A DNA stretch of 64,000 nucleotides, from assembly GCA_017541085.1 (NCBI GenBank), contig JAFXZU010000023.1, forward strand, positions 17,030 through 81,029, in the 5' to 3' direction. Below are positions 5,138-24,014 of this stretch, one piece after another (position 1 is the stretch's first letter; each line of letters starts with the position of its first letter). The notes beneath the pieces are model-generated. The model had not been told where the DNA came from and did no database searches. It saw only the letters and a list, made by a program, of their open reading frames with translations. Source of the DNA: Prevotella sp. (GTDB lineage Bacteria; Bacteroidota; Bacteroidia; Bacteroidales; Bacteroidaceae). The position numbers were made by a program, and so were the translations under genes.

Positions 5138-5173
5138 TTATGTTTAAGTTTTAGTTCTGCTTTCTTTTTACCA

Positions 5174-8158
5174 TTATATTACAACCACACCCTCCTGCTT
5201 CATACCGTCCATCTTGATGGTGCATGCCTGTGGCAGTTCCACACAACGTATGAATCGCGTCTCGTGCACGGCAGGCAGAGAATCAAGGTACTGGCGGTTT
5301 AATATCTCCAGCTCCGCCTGCTGATATTCGCGATTTTCGTCTATAGGGTTGGTTTCTTTGTCATGATACACATCGATAGTGAAATAACCGACGCCGAGTG
5401 ATGTCAGGTTCTGGAAGAAGTGTGTACCCTGTGACGGGTCCACGTATGCACTTGGCAGTATCTCTTCCACTATCAGTTTCGCCCCGGAGATGTTAGGCCA
5501 CTTCACCGGTACACCGAGCCATGAATCACTGCTGCCCCACCTGCCCGGGCCTATCAAGATATACCCCTCGCCTTTGGCAAGGAACTTATCGTTAAGTGAG
5601 TCTATCTCATCAGACACAAGGTCATTGTTAGATGCAGAGTAATTGTCATCAAGTTTGATATACACCACATGTTTCACACCCTCAATGATACCGTGTCCCA
5701 ACGAGTTGTGCGAGCGCAGCAACAGAGTCTCGTCAGGTATTGCGAGCAAGTCCTCGTCAAGCACCTGCTTGCTGTCCACTATCGGGCGTATCTGCAACAA
5801 GTAGAACTCTCCCGTCTTATCGGGATGGATGTTACAAGCCATCTCTATCTCCACCGGACGTCGCATCTCTTCCTCACCAAGGCGCAACGTCATCTGCATC
5901 AGTTCTGGCAAGGGCCACACCTCCTGCTCAAGCACGCCATTAAAAGATATAACCTTACGTCCGCCCTCATAGAGCCCCGGTCTTATTACTTGATCATAGG
6001 GATCAAAGGTGGAAGCTATATATTGTAAAGAGCCATCCTCATCTGCCTCTTTCACCATTCGTTTCTCTATATTGAAACCATCATTCACGCTCACCTCTTT
6101 TCCTGTAGGCAGACCTATGGAATAGAACTGTGTCTGCGTCTGTCTGAGAGCTATCTCCATCTCTGACATCTGCATCACCTGCTTAGGATGATAAGGCGAC
6201 ACTCGTAGCGTCTGACCACCGTCAACGATATACTTACCCAGTCCAAGGGCCAGTGCAGCAATGCCTTCCTCTGGCTTTTCCTCGCCTATAGGGTAATAAT
6301 TCAGCGAACGCAGCACACCACTTATATTAGGATAGTAATGTGTGCCGTATTGCTGTCCCACCACCTCTTGTATCACCACAGCCATCTTCTCCTGGTCTAT
6401 GACATTCTGCGTGGCTGTCATATAAGCCTTTGAGTCATGGTAATACACAGAGGCATAAACAGACTTTATCGCAGTTCCGAGATTACGGAGCATCAGCTCA
6501 CGGTCCTCGGTATATGGTATCATATATGTGCTGTATATACCAGCGAATGGCTGATAGTGACTGTCCTCAAGCAGCGATGACGAGCGTATGGCCAGCGGCT
6601 TGTGCGTAGCATCAATGATAGTATTGAAATCCTCAAGCAGCGACGTTGGCAGCTTGGCGGCAACAAAAGCATGCAGTATTTCCTCATCTGAAGCGTCACT
6701 GAGAGCTATCTCCCACAACTGGTTGGAGTCCATGAACTGGTCAAAGAGGTCGGTACACAGCACCACCGTCTTTGGTATATAAACACGTGCGCCGGGGAAC
6801 TGCTGCAACTCGGTATGCTTCTTCACTATATTGTCAAGGAATGCCAGGCCTCTACCCTTTCCTCCCAACGAGCCGTCACCAATACGCGCGAAGTGTGAGT
6901 AAGAGTCAAAGCGGTCTTTGTTGAACACGGCTACCACGCCGAGGTTCTTCATGTGGCGGTAAGCCACTATGGCATCAAATATAACCTGACGGTGCATGTC
7001 AACGTCTGGATATTTATGCCATGTTATATCACGCAGGAACGAACTTACAGAGAATATGCAGCGCGCAGCAAGCCAACGTGATATATGGTTACGACTGACA
7101 TGATAGCGCATAGTATCATGAGGCAACTCAAATACAAGATGCTGCAGGTCTCTCAGATTATGTGCCACGGCGACCACCTCACCCGAATCAGGATTACGGA
7201 AAAGGAAATCTCCGAAACCGAAATGTTCCTCAAGGATATGCTTCAGGTCCACATTGAACTTCTTTGAGTTCTTGTCAAGCACACGCACTCCTATGGTGTC
7301 AATCACTATGTCTGTCTCAGAAGTCTCAAGTATAAGCGGTAAGAACTCATCCTGCTCTCGTACATTCTTCAGCAAAGTCAGCCCCGCCTTCGGGTCTGTC
7401 TCCCCGTTATGCGGATAGCGGCAGTCAGAGATAATACCAAGCATATTATCCTTATACTGTTGGTAAAGTTGCCATGCCTCTTCATAACTACGAGCGAGCA
7501 ACACCTTCGGTCTGCCACGCATACGCAGCATCTCCGCCTGAGAGTTAAGCGCCTCGGTAGCGAAGTTCAGGCTCTGCGTAAGGATATATTTATACAGGTT
7601 GGGCAGGATGGAAGAATAAAACCTGATATTGTCCTCCACTAACAACACACACTTCACGTCAGCCTCTCGCGTGTCATTATCCACATTCATCTTGTCCTCT
7701 ATCAGTTTAATGATAGAGAGTATAAGTTCTGTATTGCCCAGCCAACAGAAGATATAGTCGAAGATACTCAGGTCAAGGTCTTGCATACGTCGGCTTATAC
7801 CGTGTGAGAACGGCGTCAGTACCACGCATGGTATGTCTGGCGACATTGACTTCACTGCACGTGCTACGTCAAAAGCGTCATTGTCGGCATTACCCGGCAT
7901 ACATATAACGAGGTCATACTGTGTGCCGCTGAGCGTGGCGGCAGCCTCGTCTATTGTTGACACCTGCTTGAACACCGGCGGATAGCGCAATCCCAGTTGC
8001 ATATACTCAGAGAATATCTTCTCATCCACACGCCCGTCATCCTCAAGCATGAACGCGTCGTATGGATTTGCCACTATCAGCACGTTGAAAATGCGTCGTT
8101 GCATAAGGTTTAGAAACGACACATCACGCAGGTTAAGTTCATTCACCATCTTTGCCAT
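5174..8158 (-). CDS. PEP/pyruvate-binding domain protein (PEP synthase/PPDK-like) with N-terminal receiver-like domains
   Basis: GSLGGKGRGLAF, AIRSSSLLEDS...FAGIY and LQIRP motifs. Start moved to 8158 because a TACCTTTG -7 box lies at about 8163-8170 on the minus strand. Confidence 0.85.
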   Translation of the reverse strand: MAKMVNELNLRDVSFLNLMQRRIFNVLIVANPYDAFMLEDDGRVDEKIFSEYMQLGLRYPPVFKQVSTIDEAAATLSGTQYDLVICMPGNADNDAFDVARAVKSMSPDIPCVVLTPFSHGISRRMQDLDLSIFDYIFCWLGNTELILSIIKLIEDKMNVDNDTREADVKCVLLVEDNIRFYSSILPNLYKYILTQSLNFATEALNSQAEMLRMRGRPKVLLARSYEEAWQLYQQYKDNMLGIISDCRYPHNGETDPKAGLTLLKNVREQDEFLPLILETSETDIVIDTIGVRVLDKNSKKFNVDLKHILEEHFGFGDFLFRNPDSGEVVAVAHNLRDLQHLVFELPHDTMRYHVSRNHISRWLAARCIFSVSSFLRDITWHKYPDVDMHRQVIFDAIVAYRHMKNLGVVAVFNKDRFDSYSHFARIGDGSLGGKGRGLAFLDNIVKKHTELQQFPGARVYIPKTVVLCTDLFDQFMDSNQLWEIALSDASDEEILHAFVAAKLPTSLLEDFNTIIDATHKPLAIRSSSLLEDSHYQPFAGIYSTYMIPYTEDRELMLRNLGTAIKSVYASVYYHDSKAYMTATQNVIDQEKMAVVIQEVVGQQYGTHYYPNISGVLRSLNYYPIGEEKPEEGIAALALGLGKYIVDGGQTLRVSPYHPKQVMQMSEMEIALRQTQTQFYSIGLPTGKEVSVNDGFNIEKRMVKEADEDGSLQYIASTFDPYDQVIRPGLYEGGRKVISFNGVLEQEVWPLPELMQMTLRLGEEEMRRPVEIEMACNIHPDKTGEFYLLQIRPIVDSKQVLDEDLLAIPDETLLLRSHNSLGHGIIEGVKHVVYIKLDDNYSASNNDLVSDEIDSLNDKFLAKGEGYILIGPGRWGSSDSWLGVPVKWPNISGAKLIVEEILPSAYVDPSQGTHFFQNLTSLGVGYFTIDVYHDKETNPIDENREYQQAELEILNRQYLDSLPAVHETRFIRCVELPQACTIKMDGMKQEGVVVI

Positions 8159-8278
8159 ACCACAAAGGTAATGTTTTTTTCCTATATACACAAATCTATC
8201 TTTCCGTAAGACACAAAAAATCCCCACCCTCAACGGGGCAGGGACTGTTATGTCTTTTTCTCTTTACAAAGCCACAGA

Positions 8279-8938
8279 TTAGAGGCGGAACTTGTAACCT
8301 ACAGTAGCGAGTAATACGCTGTTGTGGTTTGTAGCACCATCCAACACCTTGGTAACACCTATGTTGTAACGTGCATCTATCACGATATGGTTGTCAAACT
8401 CATAAGAAACACCTACAGGGATAGAGAAGTCAAACGTTTTGCAGTTATCCTTGATGTCTATGTCCTGCGTTGTCTCAGTATTTCCAGTTTTCACTGTATA
8501 CTTATACTTAGCATTTGTCATGAATGCGAACTGCACACCAGCCTTTACGGCAAGGCCTTTGAAAATGTAATAGTTTGCTACGATAGGAACGTTAATGTAA
8601 CCCAGATCTATCTTCAAATCCTTTATCTCTGTTCCTGGAACCTTGTAATCATCCCACTGCTTACCCTGCATAATATAGCCTACGCCTGCTGCTACGCTGA
8701 AGCGGTCATTTATCTGATACTCTGCCTCTGCACCGATGGTAGCACCTACGTTGATCTGACTCTCTGATTTGACGGCAACATCATTCATAAACCCATCGAA
8801 ATCATCCAAACCTGTAACAGATGTTATAGTTACACCGGCCTTTGGCTGAATGCTCCATGTTCCTGGCTTTACTTTTGACTGTGCATTAACAGATAAAGCA
8901 GCTACTGTCATTGCTGCAACTAAAAATAACTTTTTCAT
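8279..8938 (-). CDS. Outer-membrane beta-barrel protein (PorT/OmpA-like membrane domain)
   Basis: Signal peptide, YINVPIVANYY, DARYNIG, C-terminal TVGYKFRL. Confidence 0.85.
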   Translation of the reverse strand: MKKLFLVAAMTVAALSVNAQSKVKPGTWSIQPKAGVTITSVTGLDDFDGFMNDVAVKSESQINVGATIGAEAEYQINDRFSVAAGVGYIMQGKQWDDYKVPGTEIKDLKIDLGYINVPIVANYYIFKGLAVKAGVQFAFMTNAKYKYTVKTGNTETTQDIDIKDNCKTFDFSIPVGVSYEFDNHIVIDARYNIGVTKVLDGATNHNSVLLATVGYKFRL

Positions 8939-9139
8939 TATAATTTCCTTTCGTTAAGATAATTTTATTTTATTTTACAAAGACAAAAGTACAACTATTT
9001 TTCAAACTACAAAAATTATTTCCTGTTTTTTACAAATAAAATTACCGACAAGACAAAAATAATGCGACAAATACGCAGGGAAGCCCTGATATTTGTCGCA
9101 TCATTTACTATTTTATTGTAAACTATCTCATGTAAGATT

Positions 9140-9622
9140 CTATCTCAGCCTATCCGCAGAGCGTACCAAATCATCGTCATGCTTTATGCCTTTGTACGCA
9201 AGCCAATAGAGCACTATGCTCACTATCGGGAGACACACGCCAAACTGTGGGGTGACACCACCCTGCTTCTCAACGAAAGCAACTAAAGCACACACCACAC
9301 ACCACAGCAACAGCAACAACTGTCCCAAGCGGCATCCACGCATCTGACGACGGCGGTTCTTATAGTCAAAGATAGTAAGAAAAGACAACATTGCCACTGC
9401 AATAGAGATAACAGCAAGCGCAGTCATCCAGCCAAAGGTATATTCCCCGCTATTGGGATTATATATAAAAGCTGAATACACTTCACGCGGCATCCCCTGC
9501 ATACCAGTAGCAGTAGCAGACATCACTACAGGGTCATTAAGCAAGAGTACCGGCAACACCTGCATTCCCACGAGCAGCGTGGTTATCAGCAACAGATATA
9601 TTGTTTGTTTACGCTGCCACAT
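9140..9622 (-). CDS. DUF4293 family membrane protein
   Basis: MWQRKQTIYLL start, YKNRRRQ and DDDLVRSADRLR end; conserved bamD-rpoZ-DUF4293 context. Confidence 0.85.
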   Translation of the reverse strand: MWQRKQTIYLLLITTLLVGMQVLPVLLLNDPVVMSATATGMQGMPREVYSAFIYNPNSGEYTFGWMTALAVISIAVAMLSFLTIFDYKNRRRQMRGCRLGQLLLLLWCVVCALVAFVEKQGGVTPQFGVCLPIVSIVLYWLAYKGIKHDDDLVRSADRLR

Positions 9623-9624
9623 AA

Positions 9625-9972
9625 TTAATAGTCGTCCTCCTCGTCTTTACGTCTGTCTTTGGCTGGGTCATGCCAATATATGTCATGGTCAAGGAACTCC
9701 TCTGTGGCTATGAGCGTTGGCTTTGGCAGCTTCTCATAATATCTGCTTATCTCAATCTGCTCACGATTCTCAAACACCTCTTCCAGACTCTCATTGTAGT
9801 TAGCGAACTCAGCCAGTTTCTTGCTCAATTCCTGCTTTATCTCGCTAGATATCTGGTTAGCACGTTTTCCTATGATTGCAACGCTCTCATAGATATTGTC
9901 TGTTCCATCACACAGCTCCATTATGTTACGTGTTACAGTGTTTGTAGGTGCTTTTGATTTCTTGTAATCCAT
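9625..9972 (-). CDS. rpoZ: RNA polymerase omega subunit (Rpb6 family)
   Basis: NIYESVAIIGKRANQI and EEVFENREQIEISRYYEKLPKPT, typical of the Bacteroidetes omega subunit. Confidence 0.9.
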   Translation of the reverse strand: MDYKKSKAPTNTVTRNIMELCDGTDNIYESVAIIGKRANQISSEIKQELSKKLAEFANYNESLEEVFENREQIEISRYYEKLPKPTLIATEEFLDHDIYWHDPAKDRRKDEEDDY

Positions 9973-10036
9973 TTTCTGTCTTTATTATTTGTAATGCTTA
10001 TTTCCTATTGCTATATAATAATGTAGAGACCCGCAA

Positions 10037-10882
10037 TCAGTCGAATGTCAGTTTTCCTGCACTAAACTTCTTGCACTTGTCTATATATTTCTCTGCCAGG
10101 GCTATGTCCTTCGAGTCAGGATACTCATTCATAAACCCATAGCATTCATCCTCTGCATCCTGGAATCGCTCTGCCTGCTTCTCTTTCACGCTGTGAACAG
10201 CCAACTCATACTTGCTCTGCATGATAAGTGATGCAAACTGTTCCCTGAGAGTGGTGTAAGGGTAATCCTTCAAGGCATTCTGCGAGGTAACGATACAAGC
10301 CTCATAGTTGTTACCACCACTGCCTATGCAGTTACCGAAGTAGGTACCGAGATTAAAATACAATTTCGCATTAAGATATTCTTTCTCTACCAACTTATCT
10401 TGCAACTCATACATACGGTTTGTTGCCGTAGTCTTTCTCTCGCTGTATGGGAATATGTCTATATAGTCTTGATAGGCTTTAATGGCAGCCACTGTCGGAG
10501 TCTGGTCCAGACGTGGTTCCGGCACGTTACGGTACAGGCTCTCTGCTATGTAGTAACATGCATCCTCTGCATACATTCCCTTAGGGTAAGAAGTAAAATA
10601 TTTCTTGAACACCTCCGCAGCGGAGTCATAGTCCTTCATCATATACGCCGACATGGCATAGAGGAAAAGACACTCCTCACCGTTGTCCGTTCCTTTCATC
10701 ATCGTCACCATCTCACCAAAGAGAAGATTGGCACGACTGTACTTTCCCTTTGCATACTGTTCCTTTGCATACTCATAGCGATAGCTGTAGTCTGTAGAGC
10801 GGTACACATAATTAAATTCCGACACGCAACTGGTAAGTAGCATGACGGTACAGAATATTATAAAAAGGACATTTTTCTTCAT
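10037..10882 (-). CDS. bamD: Outer membrane protein assembly factor BamD (lipoprotein)
   Basis: LTSC lipobox, TPR repeats, PRLDQTPT, KLVEKEYLNAKLYFNLG. Confidence 0.92.
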   Translation of the reverse strand: MKKNVLFIIFCTVMLLTSCVSEFNYVYRSTDYSYRYEYAKEQYAKGKYSRANLLFGEMVTMMKGTDNGEECLFLYAMSAYMMKDYDSAAEVFKKYFTSYPKGMYAEDACYYIAESLYRNVPEPRLDQTPTVAAIKAYQDYIDIFPYSERKTTATNRMYELQDKLVEKEYLNAKLYFNLGTYFGNCIGSGGNNYEACIVTSQNALKDYPYTTLREQFASLIMQSKYELAVHSVKEKQAERFQDAEDECYGFMNEYPDSKDIALAEKYIDKCKKFSAGKLTFD

Positions 10883-10996
10883 TCAGAGTGCAAAGTTACT
10901 CATTATTATCGAAATAGGCAAATTCAATTCCATATTTTTCAGTAAATTTTCCTTAATTATAACATTTATTATAAAGAAATTGTGTACTTTTGCACT

Positions 10997-13018
10997 ATGA
11001 ACTCTTTCCAACTCACATCGAAGTATAAGCCTACGGGCGACCAACCTGAAGCCATACGCCAACTGGTGGATGGTCTGAGACGTGGCGATGACGCACAGGT
11101 ATTGCTTGGTGTCACCGGCTCAGGCAAGACGTTTACCATGGCAAACGTAATCCAACAGATTGGCAAGCCTACGCTCATACTCTCACACAACAAGACCTTG
11201 GCGGCACAATTGTATGAGGAGATGAAAGGGTTCTTCCCACATAATGCCGTGGAGTATTATGTGTCTTACTATGACTACTATCAACCAGAGTCATACCTAC
11301 CGGCATCCGACACCTATATCGAGAAAGACCTTGCCATCAACGAGGAGATAGACCGCCTTCGCTTGTCGGCTGTCTCGGCACTGCTCTCCGGGCGTCAGGA
11401 TGTCATAGTAGTCAGTTCCGTGTCATGTATATACGGCATGGGCGGTCCCTCTGCCATGCAGGGCAGCATCATCAGTATACGTCGCGGAGAAAGGATTGAG
11501 CGTAATGACTTCCTGCGCAAGCTTGTCGATGCGCTGTATGTACGCAACGACCTTGAAATGAGCCGTGGAGAGTTCCGTGTAAAGGGCGACACCGTAGATA
11601 TCTGGATGGCTTACTCCGAGCGTGTGCTCAGGGTCACCTTCTGGGATGACGAGATAGACGACATTGAGGAGGTTGACAGCACATCATACCATGCGCTGGA
11701 ACACTTTGACGAATACCAGATATTCCCTGCCAACCTTTTCGTTACCACAAAAGACCAGCAGGTCACGGCGGTTCGGCAGATACAAGACGACCTCGTGGCC
11801 CAGGTGGACTATTTCAAGAACATAGGCGACGAACTCAAGGCGCAGCGCATAAAAGAGCGCGTGGAGTATGACCTTGAGATGATAAAAGAACTAGGCCACT
11901 GCTCAGGCATAGAGAACTACTCACGCTACTTTGACGGCCGTCAGCCAGGCGAGCGCCCTTATTGTCTGTTTGACTTCTTCCCGAAAGACTTCCTGATGCT
12001 TATAGACGAGAGCCACGTATCCGTGCCACAGATAAGGGCAATGTACGGCGGCGACCGTTCACGCAAGCAGAACCTCGTGGAATATGGCTTCCGTCTGCCG
12101 GCAGCCTTCGACAACCGTCCGCTACGCTTTGAGGAATTTGAGGAGCTGCGCCCTCAGACTATCTATGTGTCTGCCACCCCGGCGGAATATGAACTTGAAC
12201 AAGCCGGAGGCGTGGTGGTAGAACAGGTAATACGCCCTACAGGACTGCTTGACCCTGTCATAGAGGTGCGCCCGACAGAGAACCAGATAGACGACCTCAT
12301 GGAGGAGATAAACCAGTGCGCCGAGAAACACGAGCGTGTGCTTGTCACCACACTGACAAAGCGCATGGCAGAGGAACTGACGGAGTACCTGCTGAACCAC
12401 GGAGTAAAGACAAACTACATACATTCCGACGTCAGCACCCTTGACCGCGTACAGATTCTCAACGACCTGCGCGCCGGCGTCTATGACGTCTTGGTAGGTA
12501 TCAACCTGCTGCGTGAGGGACTTGACCTGCCAGAGGTATCACTCGTAGCCATACTCGATGCCGACAAGGAGGGATTCCTGCGCTCACACCGCAGCCTCAC
12601 ACAGACTGCAGGCCGTGCGGCCCGCAACGTGAACGGTAAGGTGATAATGTATGCCGACAACATCACCGAGAGCATGAGGCAGACGATAGAGGAGACTGAG
12701 CGCCGCCGTTCAAAGCAGATAGCATATAACGAGGCGAACAACATAACGCCGCGACAGATAGAAAAGAACATTCCAACACGCCCTGCCTGCGAGGAGGAGA
12801 CTAAGAGCAGCAAACCTGTGGCATACATTGAGCCGGAGGATAATTACAGCGCAATGGCGGCAGAGCCTGTAATACAGCACATGACAAAGCAACAGATAGA
12901 GGCTGCCATAGCCACCGCCACTACACGTATGAAAGAGGCTGCCAAGAGCCTTGACTTCATGCTCGCCGCACAATACAGGGACGAGATTGTGGCTTTACAA
13001 AAACAACTGGAGCAGTGA
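10997..13018 (+). CDS. uvrB: Excinuclease ABC subunit B
   Basis: PTGDQP, LGVTGSGKT, YYDYYQPE, DESH, GRAARN motifs and a C-terminal UVR domain. Confidence 0.98.
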   Translation: MNSFQLTSKYKPTGDQPEAIRQLVDGLRRGDDAQVLLGVTGSGKTFTMANVIQQIGKPTLILSHNKTLAAQLYEEMKGFFPHNAVEYYVSYYDYYQPESYLPASDTYIEKDLAINEEIDRLRLSAVSALLSGRQDVIVVSSVSCIYGMGGPSAMQGSIISIRRGERIERNDFLRKLVDALYVRNDLEMSRGEFRVKGDTVDIWMAYSERVLRVTFWDDEIDDIEEVDSTSYHALEHFDEYQIFPANLFVTTKDQQVTAVRQIQDDLVAQVDYFKNIGDELKAQRIKERVEYDLEMIKELGHCSGIENYSRYFDGRQPGERPYCLFDFFPKDFLMLIDESHVSVPQIRAMYGGDRSRKQNLVEYGFRLPAAFDNRPLRFEEFEELRPQTIYVSATPAEYELEQAGGVVVEQVIRPTGLLDPVIEVRPTENQIDDLMEEINQCAEKHERVLVTTLTKRMAEELTEYLLNHGVKTNYIHSDVSTLDRVQILNDLRAGVYDVLVGINLLREGLDLPEVSLVAILDADKEGFLRSHRSLTQTAGRAARNVNGKVIMYADNITESMRQTIEETERRRSKQIAYNEANNITPRQIEKNIPTRPACEEETKSSKPVAYIEPEDNYSAMAAEPVIQHMTKQQIEAAIATATTRMKEAAKSLDFMLAAQYRDEIVALQKQLEQ

Positions 13019-13063
13019 CACTGCAGCCCACCACCACAATGCCGACACTACCATGCCTATGCC

Positions 13064-13116
13064 TTTCCGCAAGCCTTGCGGAAAATTGACTGATTGAGTA
13101 TTTCTTATTACCTTTG
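13064..13116 (+). promoter_or_regulatory. Palindromic operator-like site abutting the promoter of the FtsZ-like operon
   Basis: TTTCCGCAA-GCC-TTGCGGAAA (13064-13084), then a degenerate -33 ATTG (13085), 20 nt, and TACCTTTG (13109-13116). Confidence 0.55.
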
Positions 13117-13136
13117 CCATCAAAACATAATATCAC

Positions 13137-14468
13137 ATGTCACAGGAAGTAAACACTAATAAGGATTTCCCCGGTATCATACCATATTTTGAGCGCCCGA
13201 TAAAGGACCGTTCCAAAGGTATCATAAAAGTAATCGGCGTAGGTGGCGGCGGTTGCAATGCCGTATCGGGCATATACCATGAAGGTATAGACAACGTTAC
13301 TTTCGCCGTGTGCAACACCGACAGCGCCGTGCTCAACAAGTCTGAGGTGCCAGTAAAACTGCAGTTGGGCACCGAGGGACTGGGTGTAGGAGGCGACCCG
13401 TCAAGAGGCAAGGCAGAGGCAGAGAAGAGTGCAGAAGACATCAAGCGGTTGCTTGACGATGGTACGAAGATGGTTTTTGTGACCGCAGCCATGGGAGGAG
13501 GCACCGGCACAGGTTCAAGTCCCGTAGTGGCAAGCATAGCCCGCAGCATGGGCATCCTTACCGTAGGCGTAGTAACCATACCATTCTATTTTGAAAAGAA
13601 GAAAAAGGTTATCAAGGCGTTGAAAGGCGTTGAGGAGATGCGTAAGAACGTAGACGCCCTGCTCATCGTGAACAACGAGCGCCTGAGCGACATATATGCA
13701 GACTCTGAACTCACCCTGAAGGAAGCCTTCAGATGTGCCAACAACATACTGAAGGACGCAGTGAAGGGTATATCAGAACTGATAACACTGCCAAGCGACG
13801 AGGAGATACACTCCGACTTCTGTGACGTAGAGACGACAATAAGGAACGGAGGCAGCGCCATCATGGCCATGGGACGCGCCAGCGGCGACCACCGTGTGGA
13901 GCGAGCCATAACCGACGCACTGCAAAACCCACTGGTACACGGCAACGACATCGAACACGCCAAGCGAATACTCTTCAACATATACACCAGCGACGACAGT
14001 CCGCTGAAGATTAAGGAACTGCTCGACATTGATGATTTCTTCGCACAACTGAACCCCGACATTGAGGTTATATGGGGTACTGCCACAGACAACAGTCTCG
14101 GCGAGGATGCCAAGGTTACCATCCTCGCATCAGACGTGGAGAGTCATCCGGAAAGGAACCAGACTGACGAGACGGAGCACGATGAAGAATATTACGAGGA
14201 ACTGATAAAACAACTTTACAGGCCGATACCGAGCAAAGAGCCCATAAAGCAGGACCCACCATTTGATATTGAGGTGCCAAAAGAACCAGAGGCGGCTGAC
14301 ACTGACGATGAAGACGCCGAGGCAACTGACACAGAGACTGCAGAAGAGCATACCGGCGACAATACTAACGACAAGGAACCGGCAGCGCAATCACCTGCAT
14401 CAAAAAACCTACACACCATTCTGGACAAGTGGAAGACTTGGCTGGGCAACATCGTAGCAGAGGAGTAA
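13137..14468 (+). CDS. FtsZ/tubulin-family GTPase, divergent paralog outside the dcw cluster
   Basis: IKVIGVGGGGCNAV, NTD, GGGTGTG, TIPFYFE, NNERL motifs; T7 loop reads IHSDFCDV; acidic linker; no ftsA, ftsQ or mur neighbours. Confidence 0.9.
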   Translation: MSQEVNTNKDFPGIIPYFERPIKDRSKGIIKVIGVGGGGCNAVSGIYHEGIDNVTFAVCNTDSAVLNKSEVPVKLQLGTEGLGVGGDPSRGKAEAEKSAEDIKRLLDDGTKMVFVTAAMGGGTGTGSSPVVASIARSMGILTVGVVTIPFYFEKKKKVIKALKGVEEMRKNVDALLIVNNERLSDIYADSELTLKEAFRCANNILKDAVKGISELITLPSDEEIHSDFCDVETTIRNGGSAIMAMGRASGDHRVERAITDALQNPLVHGNDIEHAKRILFNIYTSDDSPLKIKELLDIDDFFAQLNPDIEVIWGTATDNSLGEDAKVTILASDVESHPERNQTDETEHDEEYYEELIKQLYRPIPSKEPIKQDPPFDIEVPKEPEAADTDDEDAEATDTETAEEHTGDNTNDKEPAAQSPASKNLHTILDKWKTWLGNIVAEE

Positions 14469-15088
14469 TGAGCAGATATGACACCTATACACAGGAAATG
14501 CTGTCACAAGAGCTGGGAGAACTCGTCGGATATATAAAATCGACGGGACAGACCCGTCTCTTGTATGATGCCTTGGGCGGTGCCTCTACGCTGGAACTTC
14601 TCAAGATGGAGGCGGCAAGGCGTAACCTGAGCCGCCTGCTCATAACGCGCAACTACCGTTTCATTCTGCCTGACTACAACGACATGGAGATAGACCTGCA
14701 ACCCGTGCACAAAGCCGTGTACCTGTTATTCCTGGCACACCCCGAGGGCATTGAGTTCAAGCGGCTGCATGACATGCGCGACGAGTTGCTGAGCTATTAC
14801 TACGCTACGGCACGCAGCATGGACAAGGCAAAGATAGAGGAGAGCGTGACACACCTCGTCAATCCGCTTGACAACGCCATCAACGAGAAATGCTCACGCA
14901 TAAAGAACGCTTTCTTCAGCCAACTGGATGACTACACTGCCATGAACTATATCATAAGCAGCCACACCCAGAAGCATTTCGCCGGCTCTTCACGCATTTG
15001 GTTCGAGAGGCTAAAGGTCATCACCCTGCCCAGAGAACTGGTCACATGGGAGGGTACACCATTATTCACGCTAAAAGACAAAGACTGA
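14468..15088 (+). CDS. Conserved Bacteroidales hypothetical protein, probable winged-helix DNA-binding domain
   Basis: Starts in the TAATG overlap with the FtsZ-like stop codon. Core LSRLLIT..Y.FILPDY..EI.L.P..KAVYLLFL.HPEGI...AINEKCSRIK resembles an OmpR-type wHTH (inference). Confidence 0.7.
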   Translation: MSRYDTYTQEMLSQELGELVGYIKSTGQTRLLYDALGGASTLELLKMEAARRNLSRLLITRNYRFILPDYNDMEIDLQPVHKAVYLLFLAHPEGIEFKRLHDMRDELLSYYYATARSMDKAKIEESVTHLVNPLDNAINEKCSRIKNAFFSQLDDYTAMNYIISSHTQKHFAGSSRIWFERLKVITLPRELVTWEGTPLFTLKDKD

Positions 15089-15102
15089 CAATCCCAACGA
15101 CA

Positions 15103-15801
15103 ATGAGCAACCCATATTTCTCATTCAAGCAATTCAACATAAAGCAAGACCGTTGCGCCATGAAGGTGGGTACCGACGGCGTACTGCTCGGTGCATGGGC
15201 AGAGGGTGGCAGGCACATCCTTGACATAGGCACCGGCACCGGACTCGTAGCCCTCATGATGGCACAGCGCTATGCCGATGCCGAAGTGACTGGGATTGAA
15301 ATTGACGATGAGGCGGCGGCCCAAGCAAAGGAGAACGCTGCGGCTTCGCCTTTCTCTGACAGGGTAAGGATTGAGGCTGTGAGCCTGCAGACATTCACTT
15401 GCGACACTCCGTTTGACGCGATAACGTGCAACCCTCCGTATTACGACAACAGTCTCAACTGTCCCGACGAAAGCCGTAATACAGCACGTCACACAACATC
15501 ACTCAGCTACGCCGAACTCATAACCCACAGCAAGCGGCTGCTTACTGATGACGGCACCCTGAACCTCGTGTTGCCTACCGACTGTCTAAAGAGCATCGAA
15601 CTGGAGTGTGCATACGCCTCAATGTTCATCAAGGACCGTCTGCTAATAAGCACCACAGAGCGCAAACAGCCCAAGCGTGTGCTACTGACAATAAAGAAAG
15701 CCTTACCACCCCACCCTACCTGCCAGACTGCCGTATTAACACAAGACGGACAACGAAGTGAGTGGTACAAAGAACTAACCGCCGACTTCTATCTGGACTA
15801 A
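15103..15801 (+). CDS. tRNA1(Val) (adenine37-N6)-methyltransferase (YfiC/TrmN6 family)
   Basis: FSFKQF...MKVGTDGVLLGAW, LDIGTGTG, NPPY, ARH motifs. Confidence 0.92.
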   Translation: MSNPYFSFKQFNIKQDRCAMKVGTDGVLLGAWAEGGRHILDIGTGTGLVALMMAQRYADAEVTGIEIDDEAAAQAKENAAASPFSDRVRIEAVSLQTFTCDTPFDAITCNPPYYDNSLNCPDESRNTARHTTSLSYAELITHSKRLLTDDGTLNLVLPTDCLKSIELECAYASMFIKDRLLISTTERKQPKRVLLTIKKALPPHPTCQTAVLTQDGQRSEWYKELTADFYLD

Positions 15802-15895
15802 TATCACAAAAGAAGTGTATGATGTTTACAAAATGTCAGCGTTCCTATAGTTTTGCTGACATTTTGTTATTTTAACTCCTTCAACGAAGAGATAC

Positions 15896-15946
15896 AAAAC
15901 AGGTGTCACAGTACCCCAAAATGCGCTGCGACACCTGTTTTTTTTT
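15896..15946 (+). terminator. Rho-independent terminator
   Basis: AAAACAGGTGTC...GACACCTGTTTTTTTTT; preceded by a second hairpin at 15828-15867. Confidence 0.8.
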
Positions 15947-15967
15947 GCTGTTTTTGTAGTTTTATAT

Positions 15968-16077
15968 GTCATTCGATAGCTTCCACAGTGTAAAAGCATA
16001 GCTTTCTCATCGTCATTCGATAGCTTTCACAAGGTAAAACGATAGCTTTTACAGGGTAAAGTGATAGCTTTCACCGC
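15968..16077 (+). repeat. Tandem array of five degenerate 22-bp units
   Basis: GTCATTCGATAGCTTCCACAGT / GTAAAAGCATAGCTTTCTCATC / GTCATTCGATAGCTTTCACAAG / GTAAAACGATAGCTTTTACAGG / GTAAAGTGATAGCTTTCACCGC. Confidence 0.9.
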
Positions 16078-16547
16078 ACAAAGAGAATACACTAGCATTA
16101 CCACCTATCAGCAACCGTCTGACAATCAACGCTTTTTACAAAGACTCAAAAAACGCACTTTTTTACACAAAAACAAGGCACGATGACAGAAATCACAAAA
16201 TACGAAGACAACAAGAAATCATTATGACAGGAAAATAACGGATTTCATGACAAAATGACAAAATGACAAATATACATTCAATTACAAAAGAGAATATACA
16301 ATACAAACATTACACATTAATTATAAAAAAAAGAATGACTCTCAGACTGAAATTCAATCAAAAAGGCAAGAAAATGTAAACTTTTTCCGTGAAAATTTGT
16401 TTATATCACAGAATATTTGTAAATTTGTCCCGGTTACATTAGTTATCAACCTAAACATACAAAGATTATATTAGTGCAGAGATAAAACCAACAAACTTAA
16501 CTACAACAACAAACTTACTATTAACTTACAAAAAACTATTAACACTT

Positions 16548-17069
16548 ATGAAAACAGCAAAACCAATGTTGTCACCCGTTGAAGCGGTGAAGATTTGTCT
16601 TACACAGAAGTATTGCACCTTCAAAGGTCGCGCACGTCGCTCAGAGTTCTGGTGGTTCAACCTATGCTACAGCATCCTGATTAGTATCCCTTCTATTGCA
16701 TTACAGATGCTGTTTAGTTGGAAATTAGCGCAGAGGTCTGCACTTGAGAGCCAAATTTATGACGCAGTGTTTGACAACGACAAGATGGCTGCATTGCAGG
16801 CTCAGGCAGAGGCTGTAGATGCAACATTCGAGACATGGATGCCTATCCTGTGCATTATCTTATTTGTTGTATGGCTGCTCACACTGCTTCCAGCATGGGG
16901 CGTAGCAGTACGTCGTCTGCACGACATTGGCAAGAGCGGATGGTCTCTCCTTATCGCCATCATTCCAATCATCGGTTCTATAATCCTGTTGATATGGGAG
17001 GTAAAAGACAGTGACCAGAACGCCAACCAGTATGGTGAGTCTCCAAAATACGAAGAAGTCAATGTATAA
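16548..17069 (+). CDS. DUF805 family inner-membrane protein
   Basis: FKGRARRSEFWW, VAVRRLHDIGKSGW, NQYGESP motifs. Confidence 0.92.
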   Translation: MKTAKPMLSPVEAVKICLTQKYCTFKGRARRSEFWWFNLCYSILISIPSIALQMLFSWKLAQRSALESQIYDAVFDNDKMAALQAQAEAVDATFETWMPILCIILFVVWLLTLLPAWGVAVRRLHDIGKSGWSLLIAIIPIIGSIILLIWEVKDSDQNANQYGESPKYEEVNV

Positions 17070-17084
17070 TACATACATAACCAT

Positions 17085-17120
17085 GTGCCGGTATGCCGCT
17101 TGCGGTGTACCGGCATTTTT
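17085..17120 (+). terminator. Rho-independent terminator after the DUF805 gene
   Basis: GTGCCGGTATGCCGC-TT-GCGGTGTACCGGCAT followed by a T run. Confidence 0.75.
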
Positions 17121-17353
17121 CATGATAGTAACGCTTTTGTCTGCATGCCACTCCAAGCGAAGCCAAGAAAAGGAAAAGATTGTATTCCAATCTCCCGCAC
17201 CGCTTGCACACGTAGAGATAATAGACAGTGACGGCACAAGAAAAAAAACATGCATTAGGCTGGCACCAGAGGAGACAGACACCTTAGAACCAGTAACACC
17301 AGGAAAATAGAAAAAAACTATTACAGCGACACAAAAAAAAAATCGCTTAAAAA

Positions 17354-17385
17354 TTTGGAAGTTACAATTATTATTTGTAACTTTG
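17354..17385 (+). promoter_or_regulatory. trp operon promoter
   Basis: TTTG (17354) - 20 nt - TAACTTTG (17378). Confidence 0.8.
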
Positions 17386-17393
17386 CACGCAGT

Positions 17394-17450
17394 ATGAAGT
17401 TATTCAGCACATATTGGTGGTGGCGCACTCAGGATTCCAAAAAGTCGTGA
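17394..17450 (+). CDS. trpL: trp operon leader peptide MKLFSTYWWWRTQDSKKS
   Basis: 18-codon ORF with three tandem TGG codons, between the promoter and the attenuator. Confidence 0.92.
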   Translation: MKLFSTYWWWRTQDSKKS

Positions 17451-17531
17451 GGCGTTGACCTATTATATATAGTAAGATAAAAGAACTATAATAAAGAAGA
17501 GGTCTGTTGCACATCGCGACAGACCTCTTTT
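17444..17531 (+). promoter_or_regulatory. Transcription attenuator (antiterminator/terminator)
   Basis: Terminator AAGAGGTCTGTTGC...GCGACAGACCTCTTTT (17497-17531). Upstream GTCGTGA and GACCT (17444-17461) can alternatively pair with TCGCGAC and AGGTC. Confidence 0.85.
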
Positions 17532-17570
17532 GCGTTAAGACAATAACAACAATACAATACTCACAAAAAA

Positions 17571-18569
17571 ATGAAAGCTCTATTATCAAAAATGCTGGAG
17601 GGCGAGACCCTCACCCGACAGGAGATGTATGACATCCTTATCGGCATAACACAGGAGAAATATCCACAGGAGCAGATTGCTGCCCTGCTTACCGGACTGC
17701 AGATGCGTGGTATAACAGTGGACGAACTGCTCGGTTTCCGCGACGGTATATTGGCAACGGGTGTGCCTGCCATACTCGATGCGGAGAAGTACATAGACAT
17801 AGTAGGCACCGGCGGCGACCAGAAGAATACGTTTAACATATCTACCTGTTCATGCCTCGTGGTAGCTGGCGCTGGATACAAGGTAGCCAAGCACGGCAAC
17901 TATGCCGCTACATCTGTCAGTGGAGCATCAAACGTAATAGAGGAGCACGGAGTGAAGTTTACCAATGACCTCGCACAACTCAACAAGAGCATCAACGAGA
18001 GCAACTTCACCTACCTGCACGCACCGCTGTTTGCACGCGCCATGAAGTTCGTGGCACCGATACGTAAGAACATCTCGTTCCCTACCATATTCAACCTGCT
18101 CGGTCCTATAGTCAACCCGTCACAGCCTAAGTGCCAGCTGCTGGGCGTTGCAACGCTTGACCAGATGCGACTTTACAATGCCGTATATCACAAGCTCGGA
18201 CTGAACTTCGGCGTGGAGAACTCCATAGACGGCTATGACGAGATTTCACTGACAGGCAACTTCAAGATTACGACAAACAACTACGAACGCATCTTCTCAC
18301 CAGCCGACATAGGTCTGCCAGTGGCTAAGGCGCATGAGCTCTACGGCGGCGAGACCAAGGAAGAAGCCGTGAAGATATTCGACAACGTACTTGCCAACGA
18401 GGCTACAGAGGCTCAGAAGAATGTGGTGATAGCCAATGCTGCCTTTGCCATCCAGGTATTAGAGGACGGAAAGAAAGATATCAAGGAGTGCTGCGCCATG
18501 GCTAAGGAATCTATTGAGAGCGGCAAGGCACTGGCATGTTTCAAGAAATACGTAGAGATAAATAGTTAA
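17571..18569 (+). CDS. trpD: Anthranilate phosphoribosyltransferase
   Basis: DIVGTGGD, TFNIST, VAKHGN, TIFNLLGP, DGYDEIS motifs. Confidence 0.97.
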   Translation: MKALLSKMLEGETLTRQEMYDILIGITQEKYPQEQIAALLTGLQMRGITVDELLGFRDGILATGVPAILDAEKYIDIVGTGGDQKNTFNISTCSCLVVAGAGYKVAKHGNYAATSVSGASNVIEEHGVKFTNDLAQLNKSINESNFTYLHAPLFARAMKFVAPIRKNISFPTIFNLLGPIVNPSQPKCQLLGVATLDQMRLYNAVYHKLGLNFGVENSIDGYDEISLTGNFKITTNNYERIFSPADIGLPVAKAHELYGGETKEEAVKIFDNVLANEATEAQKNVVIANAAFAIQVLEDGKKDIKECCAMAKESIESGKALACFKKYVEINS

Positions 18570-18571
18570 TT

Positions 18572-19363
18572 ATGGCAGACATACTTGAACAGATAGTAGC
18601 GCACAAGCGCATGGAACTTGAGGAGTTTAAGCAACGCAAGTCTTACTCCCAGATAGAGAAAGAGGTAATGCCCCTGCTTGACACTCCATGCCCGTCTATG
18701 CGCAAGGTTCTGACAGAGAGCAGCAACGGGATAATAGCTGAGTTTAAGCGTAAGTCTCCGTCAAAAGGATGGATAAAGGAGGACGGCAAGGCCGACATCA
18801 TACCACTGTCATATCAGGAGAACGGTGCGGCAGCACTGTCTATACTTACAGACGAGTATTTCTTCGGTGGGTGTGATGAGTTCATCATGAAGGCAAGACA
18901 GTCTGGTGTTACCATACCTATATTATATAAGAACTTCGTGATAGACGAGTATCAGTTGCTGCAAGCCCGTCTGTGCGGAGCAAGTGCAGCACTGCTGATA
19001 GCCGCCTGCATGACAAAGGAGCGTTGCAAGTCGCTCATTGGCATGGCACATGACCTCGGACTGGAGGTGTTGCTTGAGATGCACAGCGAACCAGAGTTGG
19101 AGTATGCCGAACTGGGTAACGATATGTGTGGCATCAACAACCGTAACCTCGGCACCTTCGTCACTGACGTAAAGAACAGTTTCCGACTGGCAGAGCAGCT
19201 GCCACAGGATGCCTGCAAGGTAAGCGAAAGCGGCATAGGCAATCCGCAGACCATCAACGAACTGCGACAGGCAGGCTTCCGTGGCTTCCTCATCGGTGAG
19301 AGTTTCATGAAGACGGAGAACCCAGGCGAGGCGCTGAGGCAATTCATAATGCCCCACCCCTAA
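18572..19363 (+). CDS. trpC: Indole-3-glycerol phosphate synthase
   Basis: IIAEFKRKSPSKG, SILTD, GINNRNL, SESGI, FLIGESFM motifs. Confidence 0.97.
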   Translation: MADILEQIVAHKRMELEEFKQRKSYSQIEKEVMPLLDTPCPSMRKVLTESSNGIIAEFKRKSPSKGWIKEDGKADIIPLSYQENGAAALSILTDEYFFGGCDEFIMKARQSGVTIPILYKNFVIDEYQLLQARLCGASAALLIAACMTKERCKSLIGMAHDLGLEVLLEMHSEPELEYAELGNDMCGINNRNLGTFVTDVKNSFRLAEQLPQDACKVSESGIGNPQTINELRQAGFRGFLIGESFMKTENPGEALRQFIMPHP

Positions 19364-19500
19364 CCCTCCCGAGGGAGTGGAACAGTTAGGGAAGCACCTT
19401 CTGATTATATCCCACGAACATAACAACAGACATAACTACATACAAACACTGCCCCATATATCTTCCCTCCCCACGGGGAGGGACTAAGGGAGGGGGGGGT
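19352..19500. repeat. GC-rich REP-like element, copy 1
   Basis: CCCCACCCCTAACCCTCCCGAGGGAG ... CCCTCCCCACGGGGAGGGACTAAGGGAGGGGGGGGT; contains the trpC stop codon. Confidence 0.85.
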
Positions 19501-19513
19501 AGAATTTTGAATT

Positions 19514-20200
19514 ATGAATTATGAATTAATCAAGGTTTGCGGCATGCGCGAGCCGGAGAACATACAACAGGTGACGGAACTCGGCATTGACTTGATGGGC
19601 TTCATATTCTGGCCTAAGAGTCCACGTTACGTTAAGAGTGTAACGGTAAAGGCCGGCATAGTGCCTAACCTGCCAAACAGCAAGGTGACGAGGAATGCCA
19701 AGAAGGTAAAGCGTGTGGGGGTGTTTGTTGACGAGGTGCCACAGACTGTTATCACACATGCATACAACTACCGGTTGGACTATATACAGTTACACGGCAA
19801 TGAGTCTCCTATATATATAGAGAACCTGAAGCGCACGCTGATTCCCGACATTCTGCCCGATGTCAAGATTATAAAGGCACTGAGCATAAGGGAGGCTGAC
19901 GACGTAAAACGATGGCGTGAGTATGAGAATGTGGCAGACCTGCTACTGTTTGACACAAAATGCAAATGCGTGGGGGGCAGCGGCGAACAGTTTGACTGGT
20001 CTGTACTCGATAAATACGATGGCAACATTCCCTTCCTGCTCTCAGGCGGCATAGGTCCTGAGGATGTCGACAGACTGAAGCAATTCAATCATCCTATGTG
20101 CATAGGCATAGACCTAAACTCAAGGTTTGAGGATGAGCCGGGAGTAAAGAATGTGGAGAAGCTGAAGAGATTTATTGAATGCATAATTCATAATTCATAA
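19514..20200 (+). CDS. trpF: Phosphoribosylanthranilate isomerase
   Basis: IKVCGM, GFIF..SPRYV, QLHGNE, GGSGEQFDW, LSGGIGP, DLNSRFE motifs. Confidence 0.96.
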   Translation: MNYELIKVCGMREPENIQQVTELGIDLMGFIFWPKSPRYVKSVTVKAGIVPNLPNSKVTRNAKKVKRVGVFVDEVPQTVITHAYNYRLDYIQLHGNESPIYIENLKRTLIPDILPDVKIIKALSIREADDVKRWREYENVADLLLFDTKCKCVGGSGEQFDWSVLDKYDGNIPFLLSGGIGPEDVDRLKQFNHPMCIGIDLNSRFEDEPGVKNVEKLKRFIECIIHNS

Positions 20201-20250
20201 TGCATAATGCATAATTCAAAATTAATAATTAATAATGAAATAATTCATCG

Positions 20251-20320
20251 CTCACAACTCACAACTCATAACTCATAACTCATAACTCATAACTCACAAC
20301 TCATAACTCATAACTCATAA
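20251..20320 (+). repeat. Heptamer tandem repeat (CTCAYAA)x10
   Basis: Ten consecutive CTCACAA/CTCATAA units directly upstream of trpA. Confidence 0.95.
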
Positions 20321-20334
20321 CTTACGAAAGTACA

Positions 20335-21111
20335 ATGAACAAGATAAACAAACTATTTACAGATAACAAGGACAGAAAACTTCTGTCACTATACTTTTGC
20401 GCAGGCAGCGCCAAACTGGATAACACAGGCGAGGTTATCAAGACATTAGAGAGACGTGGTATCGACATGATAGAGGTGGGTGTACCATTCTCTGACCCTA
20501 TGGCTGACGGCCCTGTGATACAGGAGGCGGCAACAAAGGCACTGAAGAACGGCATGACATTAAGGCTGCTCTTCTCACAACTGAAAGCCATTAAGGATGA
20601 GGTAAACATACCTCTCATACTGATGGGTTATCTCAACGTGTTCATGCAATATGGTTTCGAGGAATTCTTCAAGATGTGCGTGGAATGCGGCGTAAGCGGT
20701 GCCATAATACCAGACTTGCCTTTCGCTGACTATCAGGAGCTGAAACCTTTGGCAGACAAGTATGACATACGTATCATCATGCTCATAACACCTGAGACGA
20801 GCGACGAGCGCATACGCTTCATCGACGATAACACTGACGGCTTTATATATATGGTGTCATCAGCCTCAACAACAGGTGCGCAGAAGTCTTTCGACGAGCA
20901 GAAGCAGGAATACTTCCAACGCATCAACAGCATGAACCTGCGCAATCCTCGCATGATTGGTTTCGGCATAAGCAACAAGCAAACACTGGAGACCTCACAG
21001 CAGAATGCCGCCGGTGCCATCATAGGCTCAAAGTTCGTGCAACTGCTTGAAGAGGCTGGTGGCGATGCAGACAAAGCGATAGACAAACTGTATGAGGCTT
21101 TGGAGAAATAA
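20335..21111 (+). CDS. trpA: Tryptophan synthase alpha chain
   Basis: [39 protein letters not shown] motifs. Confidence 0.97.
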
Positions 21112-21139
21112 AAAAGAATATGATGTGTTAAGACAACTG

Positions 21140-21248
21140 TAGTTAAGTAGTTATGTAGATAAGTAGTTAAGACATTACTATTTGCATGTTTGATAGTCTT
21201 ACACATATGTCTTAACTCCTTAACTTCTAAACTCCCTAACTTCTAAAT
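21140..21248. repeat. Inverted pair of degenerate octamer arrays
   Basis: TAGTTAAG-like x4 (21140-21171) facing the complementary CTTAACT(C/T)-like x5 (21209-21248). Confidence 0.7.
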
Positions 21249-21264
21249 CACAAAACTAAATAAT

Positions 21265-22446: not shown

Positions 22447-22473
22447 AAAACAAAACAAACACAAAATACAATT

Positions 22474-23883: not shown

Positions 23884-24014
23884 CCCCCTCCCCTAACCCC
23901 TCCCCGAGGGGAGGGGATAAATACGGAACTGCTGTATATAACAAAAATACAAATATAATATTAACAAAACCATATATCCCCCCTCCCCTCGGGGAGGGAC
24001 AAAGGGAGGGGGTT
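23882..24014. repeat. GC-rich REP-like element, copy 2
   Basis: AACCCCCTCCCCTAACCCCTCCCCGAGGGGAGGGG ... CCCTCCCCTCGGGGAGGGACAAAGGGAGGGGGTT; overlaps the trpE stop. Confidence 0.88.

Follow-up and report, generated by a model that had tools for sequence, protein, structure and literature searches.

Two ftsZ genes were described in Segatella copri DSM 18205, where only their joint silencing elongates or filaments the cells and silencing of ftsZ_1 alone has little effect; in S. sanihominis, silencing of a truncated ftsZ_2 alters cell shape without filamentation (Cosi et al., bioRxiv 10.64898/2026.04.17.719208, in the accessible portion of the preprint). According to the accessible sections of three other sources, an FtsZ with a C-terminal amphipathic helix binds liposomes or membrane directly in Mycoplasma genitalium (bioRxiv 10.1101/2023.08.29.555414), FtsZ paralogs of Hyphomicrobiales were proposed to regulate division negatively (PMC13732431), and the tubC site of the TubZRC segregation systems consists of several direct repeats arranged in blocks upstream of tubR, which encodes a protein of ∼10 kDa (PMC6009700). 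Here we analyzed a 64,000-nt stretch of Prevotella sp. DNA (contig JAFXZU010000023.1, hereafter the window; the source genome is 81% complete) that carries a second FtsZ gene, ftsZ2, together with a gene for a 206-aa partner protein and a palindromic operator.

The accessible text of Cosi et al. mentions neither a regulator or partner, nor an operator, a clade or a self-anchoring tail. No publications on the partner, the operator or the FtsZ2 tail were found in a literature search, subscription journals being mostly outside its scope. The supplements of PMC11784079 contain no ftsZ, the single ftsZ row in the supplement of PMC10635906 is uninformative, and the accessible parts of PMC9871819 and bioRxiv 10.1101/264945 provide context on the topic only.

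The ftsZ2 gene (443 aa; 13137..14468, forward strand), the partner gene (14468..15088, forward strand) and the operator (13064..13084) constitute a real, conserved three-part module. The explanation that we favor is that FtsZ2 is probably a regulated, self-anchoring back-up or helper FtsZ of cell division, controlled by its winged-helix partner via the palindrome. The partner would bind the conserved palindrome just 5' of the ftsZ2 promoter; FtsZ2, devoid of the FtsA-docking peptide, would attach to the membrane by an FtsA-like end helix, and it would serve as a back-up or helper in division under the control of the partner.

In line with the first-pass annotation of the window, which was made from the sequence alone, the open reading frames (ORFs), the Pfam matches and a scan of positions 5000-24000 place a stand-alone FtsZ gene and its partner between uvrB and the gene for a TrmN-like methyltransferase, with no genes of the division and cell wall (dcw) cluster among the ORFs of that interval. 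The stop codon of ftsZ2 overlaps the start codon of the partner gene in the previously noted TAATG (14466..14470, forward strand), by which the two genes may be translationally coupled. The window contains no Rfam families. Contigs from an RNA library span the locus, one of them crossing the gene junction (X1, 13562-14817), and since such contigs cover the flanks equally, no sign of transcription is to be drawn from them.

The FtsZ2 protein and its clade

FtsZ2 scores 132.1 bits against Pfam Tubulin (cut-off 33) and 58.1 bits against FtsZ_C (cut-off 27), and it exceeds the cut-off of the FtsZ equivalog TIGR00065 (307.7 vs 295.2 bits). The T1 and T4 motifs are intact (T4, GGGTGTG, at residues 120-126), and all 49 sequences of solved structures that match FtsZ2 under E 1e-20 are FtsZ. 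The canonical ftsZ is located elsewhere in the genome (C41), after ftsQ-ftsA at the end of the mur cluster, where the first-pass annotation had suggested looking for it; the two proteins are 54% identical.

In a quick IQ-TREE analysis, for which 92 cores were extracted and three duplicates dropped to leave 89 distinct ones, all 49 FtsZ2 rows fell on one side of a branch with SH-aLRT support of 100, apart from 17 canonical and 23 other-family rows; the outgroup sampling of this tree is incomplete, as the motif filter missed some fetched genes, and includes no TubZ row. FtsZ2 is a clade of its own, separate from the canonical FtsZ of the genus and lying among Bacteroidales FtsZ. It may have arisen by duplication or by transfer from a related family, the tree being compatible with both.

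Matches to ftsZ2 are present in 148 of 401 Prevotella-genus genomes, the source genome counted, at a threshold of E 1e-112 or better that was set from the gap between the two ftsZ types and below which broken copies score. In a draw from the family beyond the genus, the ftsZ2-linked type of the partner was found in one of 169 genomes (G520), which also has ftsZ2 and the operator; this genome carries three partner copies on separate contigs. Genomes G436, G276 and G321 possess two ftsZ2 cassettes each. Two or three ftsZ in tandem occur in other Bacteroidales families (loci L114, L116 and L122 in G078, G091 and G074, respectively); some of their tails are helix-like, and none of them falls into the FtsZ2 clade.

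The T7 loop of the studied copy (residues 217-231; 13785..13829, forward strand) has a two-residue insertion and retains both aspartates (D227 and D230), which are conserved in 52 of 52 FtsZ2 and, among partnered copies, in 79 of 79. The T7 asparagine, found in 40/40 canonical and other-family rows, is present in 24/52 FtsZ2 and replaced by histidine (H225) in the studied copy. An asparagine at residue 202 is known in some FtsZ, and the D-to-N change at this position was therefore not counted as damage.

A further departure from canonical FtsZ concerns the C-terminal tail. The docking-peptide motif P[ATS][YFC]xR, defined from our alignments together with general knowledge of FtsZ, occurs in 16 of 17 canonical and 15 of 23 outgroup tails, and in none of 51 complete FtsZ2. 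The docking peptide is replaced there by an amphipathic helix followed by acidic residues, and the mean hydrophobic moment of the tails is 0.63 in FtsZ2 vs 0.45 in canonical FtsZ. In the studied copy, this helix, a predicted membrane anchor, spans residues 428-441 (14418..14459, forward strand). A profile of 49 FtsZ2 tails, from which the studied copy was left out, was scanned against the C-termini of 1796 ORFs of the genome; it ranked the studied copy first (27.9 bits) and the genome's own FtsA tail second (18.1 bits), the next one scoring 8.6 bits, and canonical FtsZ tails reach at most 6.8 bits. The C-terminal helix of FtsA is the membrane anchor of that protein. With the docking peptide gone and an FtsA-like end helix in its place, FtsZ2 is predicted to anchor itself at the membrane, and we regard membrane binding by the tail as likely.

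The partner protein and its probable operator

The partner has no hits in Pfam, NCBIfam or PHROGs, and by sequence it matches neither solved structures nor viral folds. No match was found in the phage collection, and IMG/VR yielded four contigs with distant homologs only (37-45%). The family is large and unannotated (6321 matches among 6497 candidates; 2181 representatives), and the domain often forms the C-terminal part of proteins of 330-670 aa. The N-terminal domain of hundreds of these long homologs (P0148 and relatives, residues 1-215), for which no family was found, is a possible sensor; other long homologs bear DUF6804, DUF1810 or TPR at the N-terminus.

The predicted model of the partner (pLDDT 88.6) comprises three N-terminal helices, residues 1-52 being helical only, and a winged-helix domain at residues 55-197. 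Effector domains of the OmpR/PhoB type take all of the first 23 places among its structural matches, BaeR being the best (Z 8.4, rmsd 2.8, 98 aligned residues), and a receiver domain is absent from the model and from the Pfam scan. We thus predict a sensor-less OmpR/PhoB-type winged-helix fold, which bears out the earlier description of the protein as winged helix-turn-helix-like. The wing hairpin (residues 163-185; 14954..15022, forward strand) is extended and may offer a surface for protein contacts: it is ∼13 residues longer than in long homologs, the wing segment having 21-22 residues in 135 of 141 short members vs nine residues in 142 of 156 long ones. TubR does not appear among the 50 structural-match rows of the model, which does not exclude a likeness to it.

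Linkage of the two genes was counted over a list of 150 ftsZ2 loci from 147 genomes, against the 146 best of the listed partner matches; the loci include kin, which are not independent. At 141 of these loci, ftsZ2 has the partner no more than 8 kb away (after ftsZ2 at 94, before it at 5 and head-to-head with it at 42), and nine loci are without the partner. Because the linkage persists through three arrangements, it points to a functional tie between the two genes. A pair prediction for FtsZ2 and the partner gave 0.41 vs 0.00 for the best control, with no less than 68% of contacts shared between runs and a partner pLDDT of at least 81. Among solved complexes, 18 of 157 reach the mark at ≤0.60, as do 2 of 215 mismatches; such a mark is more often wrong than right unless contact was likely beforehand, so the odds of contact move little. 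That FtsZ2 would contact the partner and thereby regulate its own expression by feedback is conceivable and rather doubtful. Five FtsZ2 positions (E94, R247, A248, F280 and D324) are relaxed in partner-less copies and form a weak candidate for a contact surface, as judged from 10 rows. The three fusions of FtsZ2 with the partner (P0408-P0410), each a singleton on a single contig, resemble deletions or assembly joins and were not taken as evidence.

The palindrome was first annotated as a 9-3-9 repeat touching the −33 position. Its place and its contact with ATTG stand; its symmetry is 10-1-10, because the G and C of the supposed spacer pair. The palindrome, whose conserved 13-bp core occupies 13068-13080 around the center at 13074, lies 45 nt 3' of the uvrB stop, and its 3' end abuts a −33-like ATTG (13085-13088), which is followed by a 20-nt spacer and the −7 box TACCTTTG (13109-13116), 35 bp 3' of the operator center. 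These elements agree with the −33/−7 consensus of Bacteroidota promoters and form a predicted housekeeping promoter (13085..13116, forward strand). The promoter motifs printed in the accessible part of a preprint on Bacteroidota are similar, not identical (bioRxiv 10.1101/2024.04.05.588293).

By length alone the palindrome is unremarkable, as the genome contains 22 perfect 10-1-10 palindromes. There are two occurrences of its core, GCAAG[GC]CTTGC, in the 2.5 Mb of sequence, and of the 1496 TAnnTTTGY boxes of the genome just three have a core with up to two mismatches at 35, 42 or 43 bp. Relaxed matches to the core number 21, of them three intergenic. A global regulon of the operator in the source genome was rejected on these counts, and the operator is predicted to control only the ftsZ2-partner operon there.

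The operator is conserved beyond chance. Its consensus, derived from 47 distinct sites, is YRCAAG-S-CTTGYR with invariant CAA and TTG. It was found upstream of ftsZ2 in 40/40 freshly fetched loci and at 71 of 72 partnered loci, the remaining one having been left out of scoring; its distance to the first −7 box is 35 bp at 43 loci and 42-43 bp at another 23 (66/71). All nine partner-less loci with upstream DNA lack it, which on a fast tree amounts to ∼5-6 independent losses. Where the gene order is flipped, the operator precedes the partner (5/5); at four loci with insertions between the two genes, it has remained with ftsZ2 three times; at head-to-head loci, the two −7 boxes lie at 42 and 54 bp from a single site (6/7); and at locus L023 it stands before the partner in the absence of ftsZ2. 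Upstream of other ORFs that bear the partner domain it is found in 3 of 23 cases, the background being 2.4%. The operator pattern occurs 1-9 times in each of ten cassette genomes (0-1 in the reversed control) and 0-4 times in five genomes without the partner, mostly within genes; the extra intergenic sites in relatives head island operons with a DnaB paralog, TerB or membrane proteins. None of the outcomes named in advance as speaking against the proposed module, i.e., a sole ftsZ, branching within canonical FtsZ, a non-syntenic partner or an unconserved palindrome, was encountered.

Binding of the palindrome by a head-to-head dimer of the partner is, in our view, very likely. As the site lies wholly upstream of the −33 element and at fixed distances, activation of ftsZ2 by the partner is somewhat favored over repression.

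Several further observations concern the operator and its neighborhood. A short partner paralog followed by an ACAAG-S-CTTGT site is present at L033 (4922-7551), L202 (934-3533) and L081 (363-928); in islands of the L033 type the site is followed by a gene for a 147-aa protein and a second DnaB helicase, with Pif1 nearby. A perfect operator precedes trmN at L263 (1500-2298) in genome G110, the ftsZ2 of which is located elsewhere. At L197 (2667-4163), the operator and ftsZ2 are separated by the insertion of a group II intron reverse transcriptase. In the window, an AT-rich intergenic stretch contains an array of 22-bp units (15968-16077) 3' of two hairpins (15828-15867 and 15896-15941); palindromic units related to this array recur genome-wide and include several of the 22 perfect 10-1-10 palindromes.

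Role of the cassette and alternative explanations

It is fairly probable that FtsZ2 supports division, a role so far demonstrated, in the work of others, for the ftsZ pair of S. copri DSM 18205 alone. The non-division role supposed in the first-pass annotation does not agree with an FtsZ that is 54% identical to the dcw copy, and the accessible part of the Cosi et al. preprint points to a role in division.

A number of observations weigh against a self-anchoring back-up FtsZ under the control of the partner. Some ∼63% of the searched genomes are without intact ftsZ2, which makes the gene dispensable. FtsA tails of other genomes score from −1.4 to 18.2 bits on the FtsZ2-tail profile (the L094 row is in the wrong frame), and an FtsA-tail profile, with four wrong-frame rows in the model, reached at least 5 bits in only 4/51 FtsZ2; as these scores are uneven and the reverse test is weak, the likeness of the two tails may be convergent. 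AlphaFold2 (AF2) models the tail helix with low confidence (pLDDT ∼54), and both S. copri FtsZ are said to have a C-terminal region for membrane-anchoring proteins (bioRxiv 10.64898/2026.04.17.719208, accessible portion), at variance with our finding on the FtsZ2 tails. The DSM 18205 ftsZ_2 itself likely belongs to the FtsZ2 clade, as judged from a protein labeled S. copri (P0307) that falls within it and is 62% identical over the core. Among the partnered copies, the T7 asparagine is kept in 41/79 and lost in 38/79; the S. copri-type branch retains it, and the studied copy has histidine. The studied copy also forms the longest of 43 terminal branches (0.38 vs a median of 0.04) and has changes of its own at positions conserved elsewhere (V84, E222 and N264), and owing to this fast evolution and these changes it may be weakened. 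Deleted or frameshifted ftsZ2 cassettes are found at L011, L049, L200 and L201, three of which retain the operator. For the partner, the best Foldseek match has an E-value of 0.17 and nothing falls under 0.001, although the rank order agrees, and a Z of 8.4 is near the level of chance fold similarity. OmpR-type domains normally bind direct repeats, and the operator is a palindrome.

According to the strongest alternative, itself unlikely, FtsZ2 is a regulated brake or tuner that delays division under stress, either by co-polymerizing with FtsZ1 at slow GTP turnover or by pulling FtsZ1 to the membrane away from FtsA. The loss of the T7 asparagine, which includes the studied copy, would suit such a role, as would the operon with a second DnaB that the same operator heads in some relatives; negative regulation was likewise proposed for the Hyphomicrobiales paralogs (PMC13732431), and silencing of the truncated S. 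sanihominis ftsZ_2 alters shape without filamentation (bioRxiv 10.64898/2026.04.17.719208), both in the accessible parts of the sources. However, both T7 aspartates are invariant, and the observation that S. copri DSM 18205 elongates only on double knock-down, ftsZ_1 alone having little effect, requires a positive role of the second ftsZ.

FtsZ2 could also be a conflict gene, that is, an inhibitor-resistant FtsZ induced on attack of the normal FtsZ, or of the FtsA that tethers it, by proteins of phages or competing bacteria; we consider this improbable. It is compatible with the back-up function and differs only in the trigger. The ftsZ2 cassette sits at varying chromosomal sites: none of 51 other ftsZ2 loci is near uvrB or trmN, by which a link to the SOS response through uvrB was rejected. 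The cassette of the window appears as an insertion between these two genes (13013..15101), as in the best trmN relative among 151 genomes (L159) uvrB is directly followed by trmN, and one metatranscriptome contig skips from 13012 to 15102 (depth 3.9). Its borders show no flanking repeats and no shift in composition. This mobility and the patchy presence of ftsZ2 (148/401) would fit a conflict gene, as would the loss of the docking peptide, which is the target used by many FtsZ inhibitors. Some loci lie in islands with ADP-ribosylglycohydrolase (4/53), Pif1 (5/53) or a DnaB paralog (6/53). The partner weakly matches the PADLOC profile CARF5 (E 2e-5), and an Atlas lead to CARF5/Cas_NE0113 scored 0.90, with the family on 22% of members; the match covers only profile positions 237-335 of 351, and the N-terminal CARF domain of these proteins lies outside it. 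Yet in 53 wide loci no neighbor besides the partner recurs more than six times, which rules out a larger conserved operon and deprives the phage-conflict role suggested at first pass of a constant neighbor; FtsZ2 has no PADLOC match, and its neighbors in the window are housekeeping genes.

A TubZRC-like segregation system, with the partner as the centromere-binding protein and filaments of FtsZ2 as the motor that moves DNA, is highly improbable. The three-part layout on which the first-pass annotation based this analogy and the weak pair prediction agree with it, as does the one plasmid record with the pair, a 317-kb plasmid of S. hominis HDD12 on which the pair lies 2-6 kb from parA and repB; but that copy already adjoins a ParA gene, most loci lie among chromosomal genes, FtsZ2 is a bona fide FtsZ, a single palindrome and a 206-aa protein stand in place of repeat blocks and a ∼10-kDa TubR (PMC6009700, accessible sections), none of the 20 largest of 54 repeat families lies within 13019-13136, and a membrane-type tail is ill-suited to a DNA-moving motor.

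Equally remote is the view that the palindrome is an RNA hairpin terminating uvrB, or the site of an unrelated global regulator, with the partner as a passenger: its position shortly past the uvrB stop and the sites before other genes in some relatives are outweighed by the lack of a U-tract, its absence from the terminator-like elements, its retention at a fixed distance to the −7 box whatever the upstream gene and also between divergent genes, its loss along with the partner, its presence before the partner at L023, and the scarcity of intergenic sites in the source genome.

For the back-up FtsZ under partner control, a more elaborate version is a fail-safe circuit, in which the partner would be held by FtsZ, released when Z-ring proteins are depleted or attacked, and would then activate the FtsA-independent FtsZ2; we rate this circuit as unlikely. 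If true, it would mean that a transcription factor senses the condition of the cytoskeleton, and that a natural chimera of FtsZ and a membrane anchor is at work in a walled Gram-negative bacterium. Prevotella and Segatella dominate many human and ruminant guts, and a second FtsZ offers a likely explanation for the failure of FtsZ knock-down in some strains. The second ftsZ of S. copri found by Cosi et al., a likely member of the FtsZ2 clade, gains a predicted bypass of FtsA, a probable dedicated regulator and a 13-bp site. FtsZ2 thereby bears on whether FtsZ can divide a walled bacterium without the FtsA tether and on feedback from the FtsZ level to transcription, for which antisense tools already work in S. 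copri, and the partner defines an unannotated family of Bacteroidota regulators with a probable binding site.

Comparison with described systems

What TubZRC systems share with the ftsZ2 cassette is a GTPase of the tubulin family, a partner that binds DNA, in the cassette by prediction, and a site 5' of the operon. By type, TubR is a winged-helix protein, as is predicted for the partner. The cassette differs in having a true FtsZ rather than a TubZ motor, a single palindrome rather than the iteron blocks of tubC, a 206-aa partner rather than a ∼10-kDa TubR, and a mostly chromosomal location, here between uvrB and trmN, rather than one on a plasmid or prophage. With the OmpR/PhoB effector domains (BaeR 4b09, GlnR, CadC) the partner shares the predicted winged-helix fold over residues 55-197 and a promoter-adjacent site; in contrast to them, it has no receiver or membrane sensor domain, is 8-14% identical, and has a palindromic site and a longer wing.

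Like FtsZ2, the Hyphomicrobiales paralogs represent a bacterial ftsZ duplicate that was retained and for which a tuning role in division has been proposed; in Rhizobiaceae the proteins are truncated beyond the GTPase core, a dedicated regulator is not seen, and the accessible text has no mention of Bacteroidota (PMC13732431). In the M. genitalium type of FtsZ, an amphipathic helix replaces the docking peptide as in FtsZ2; there it belongs to the only FtsZ of a wall-less cell and its membrane binding is shown, whereas FtsZ2 is a second copy beside FtsZ-FtsA and its binding is predicted.

Canonical dcw FtsZ (TIGR00065) and FtsZ2 have in common the GTPase and C-terminal domains, the T4 motif and the T7 aspartates. 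FtsZ2 lies outside the dcw cluster, the position after ftsA being held by the other copy, has neither the T7 asparagine, in the studied copy, nor the conserved C-terminal docking peptide, ends in an FtsA-like tail, has a probable regulator of its own and is dispensable. The closest described counterpart, ftsZ_2 of S. copri DSM 18205, is likewise a second ftsZ in Prevotellaceae; in the S. copri-type branch the two genes are arranged head-to-head and the T7 asparagine is retained, whereas the studied copy is in tandem with its partner and carries histidine.

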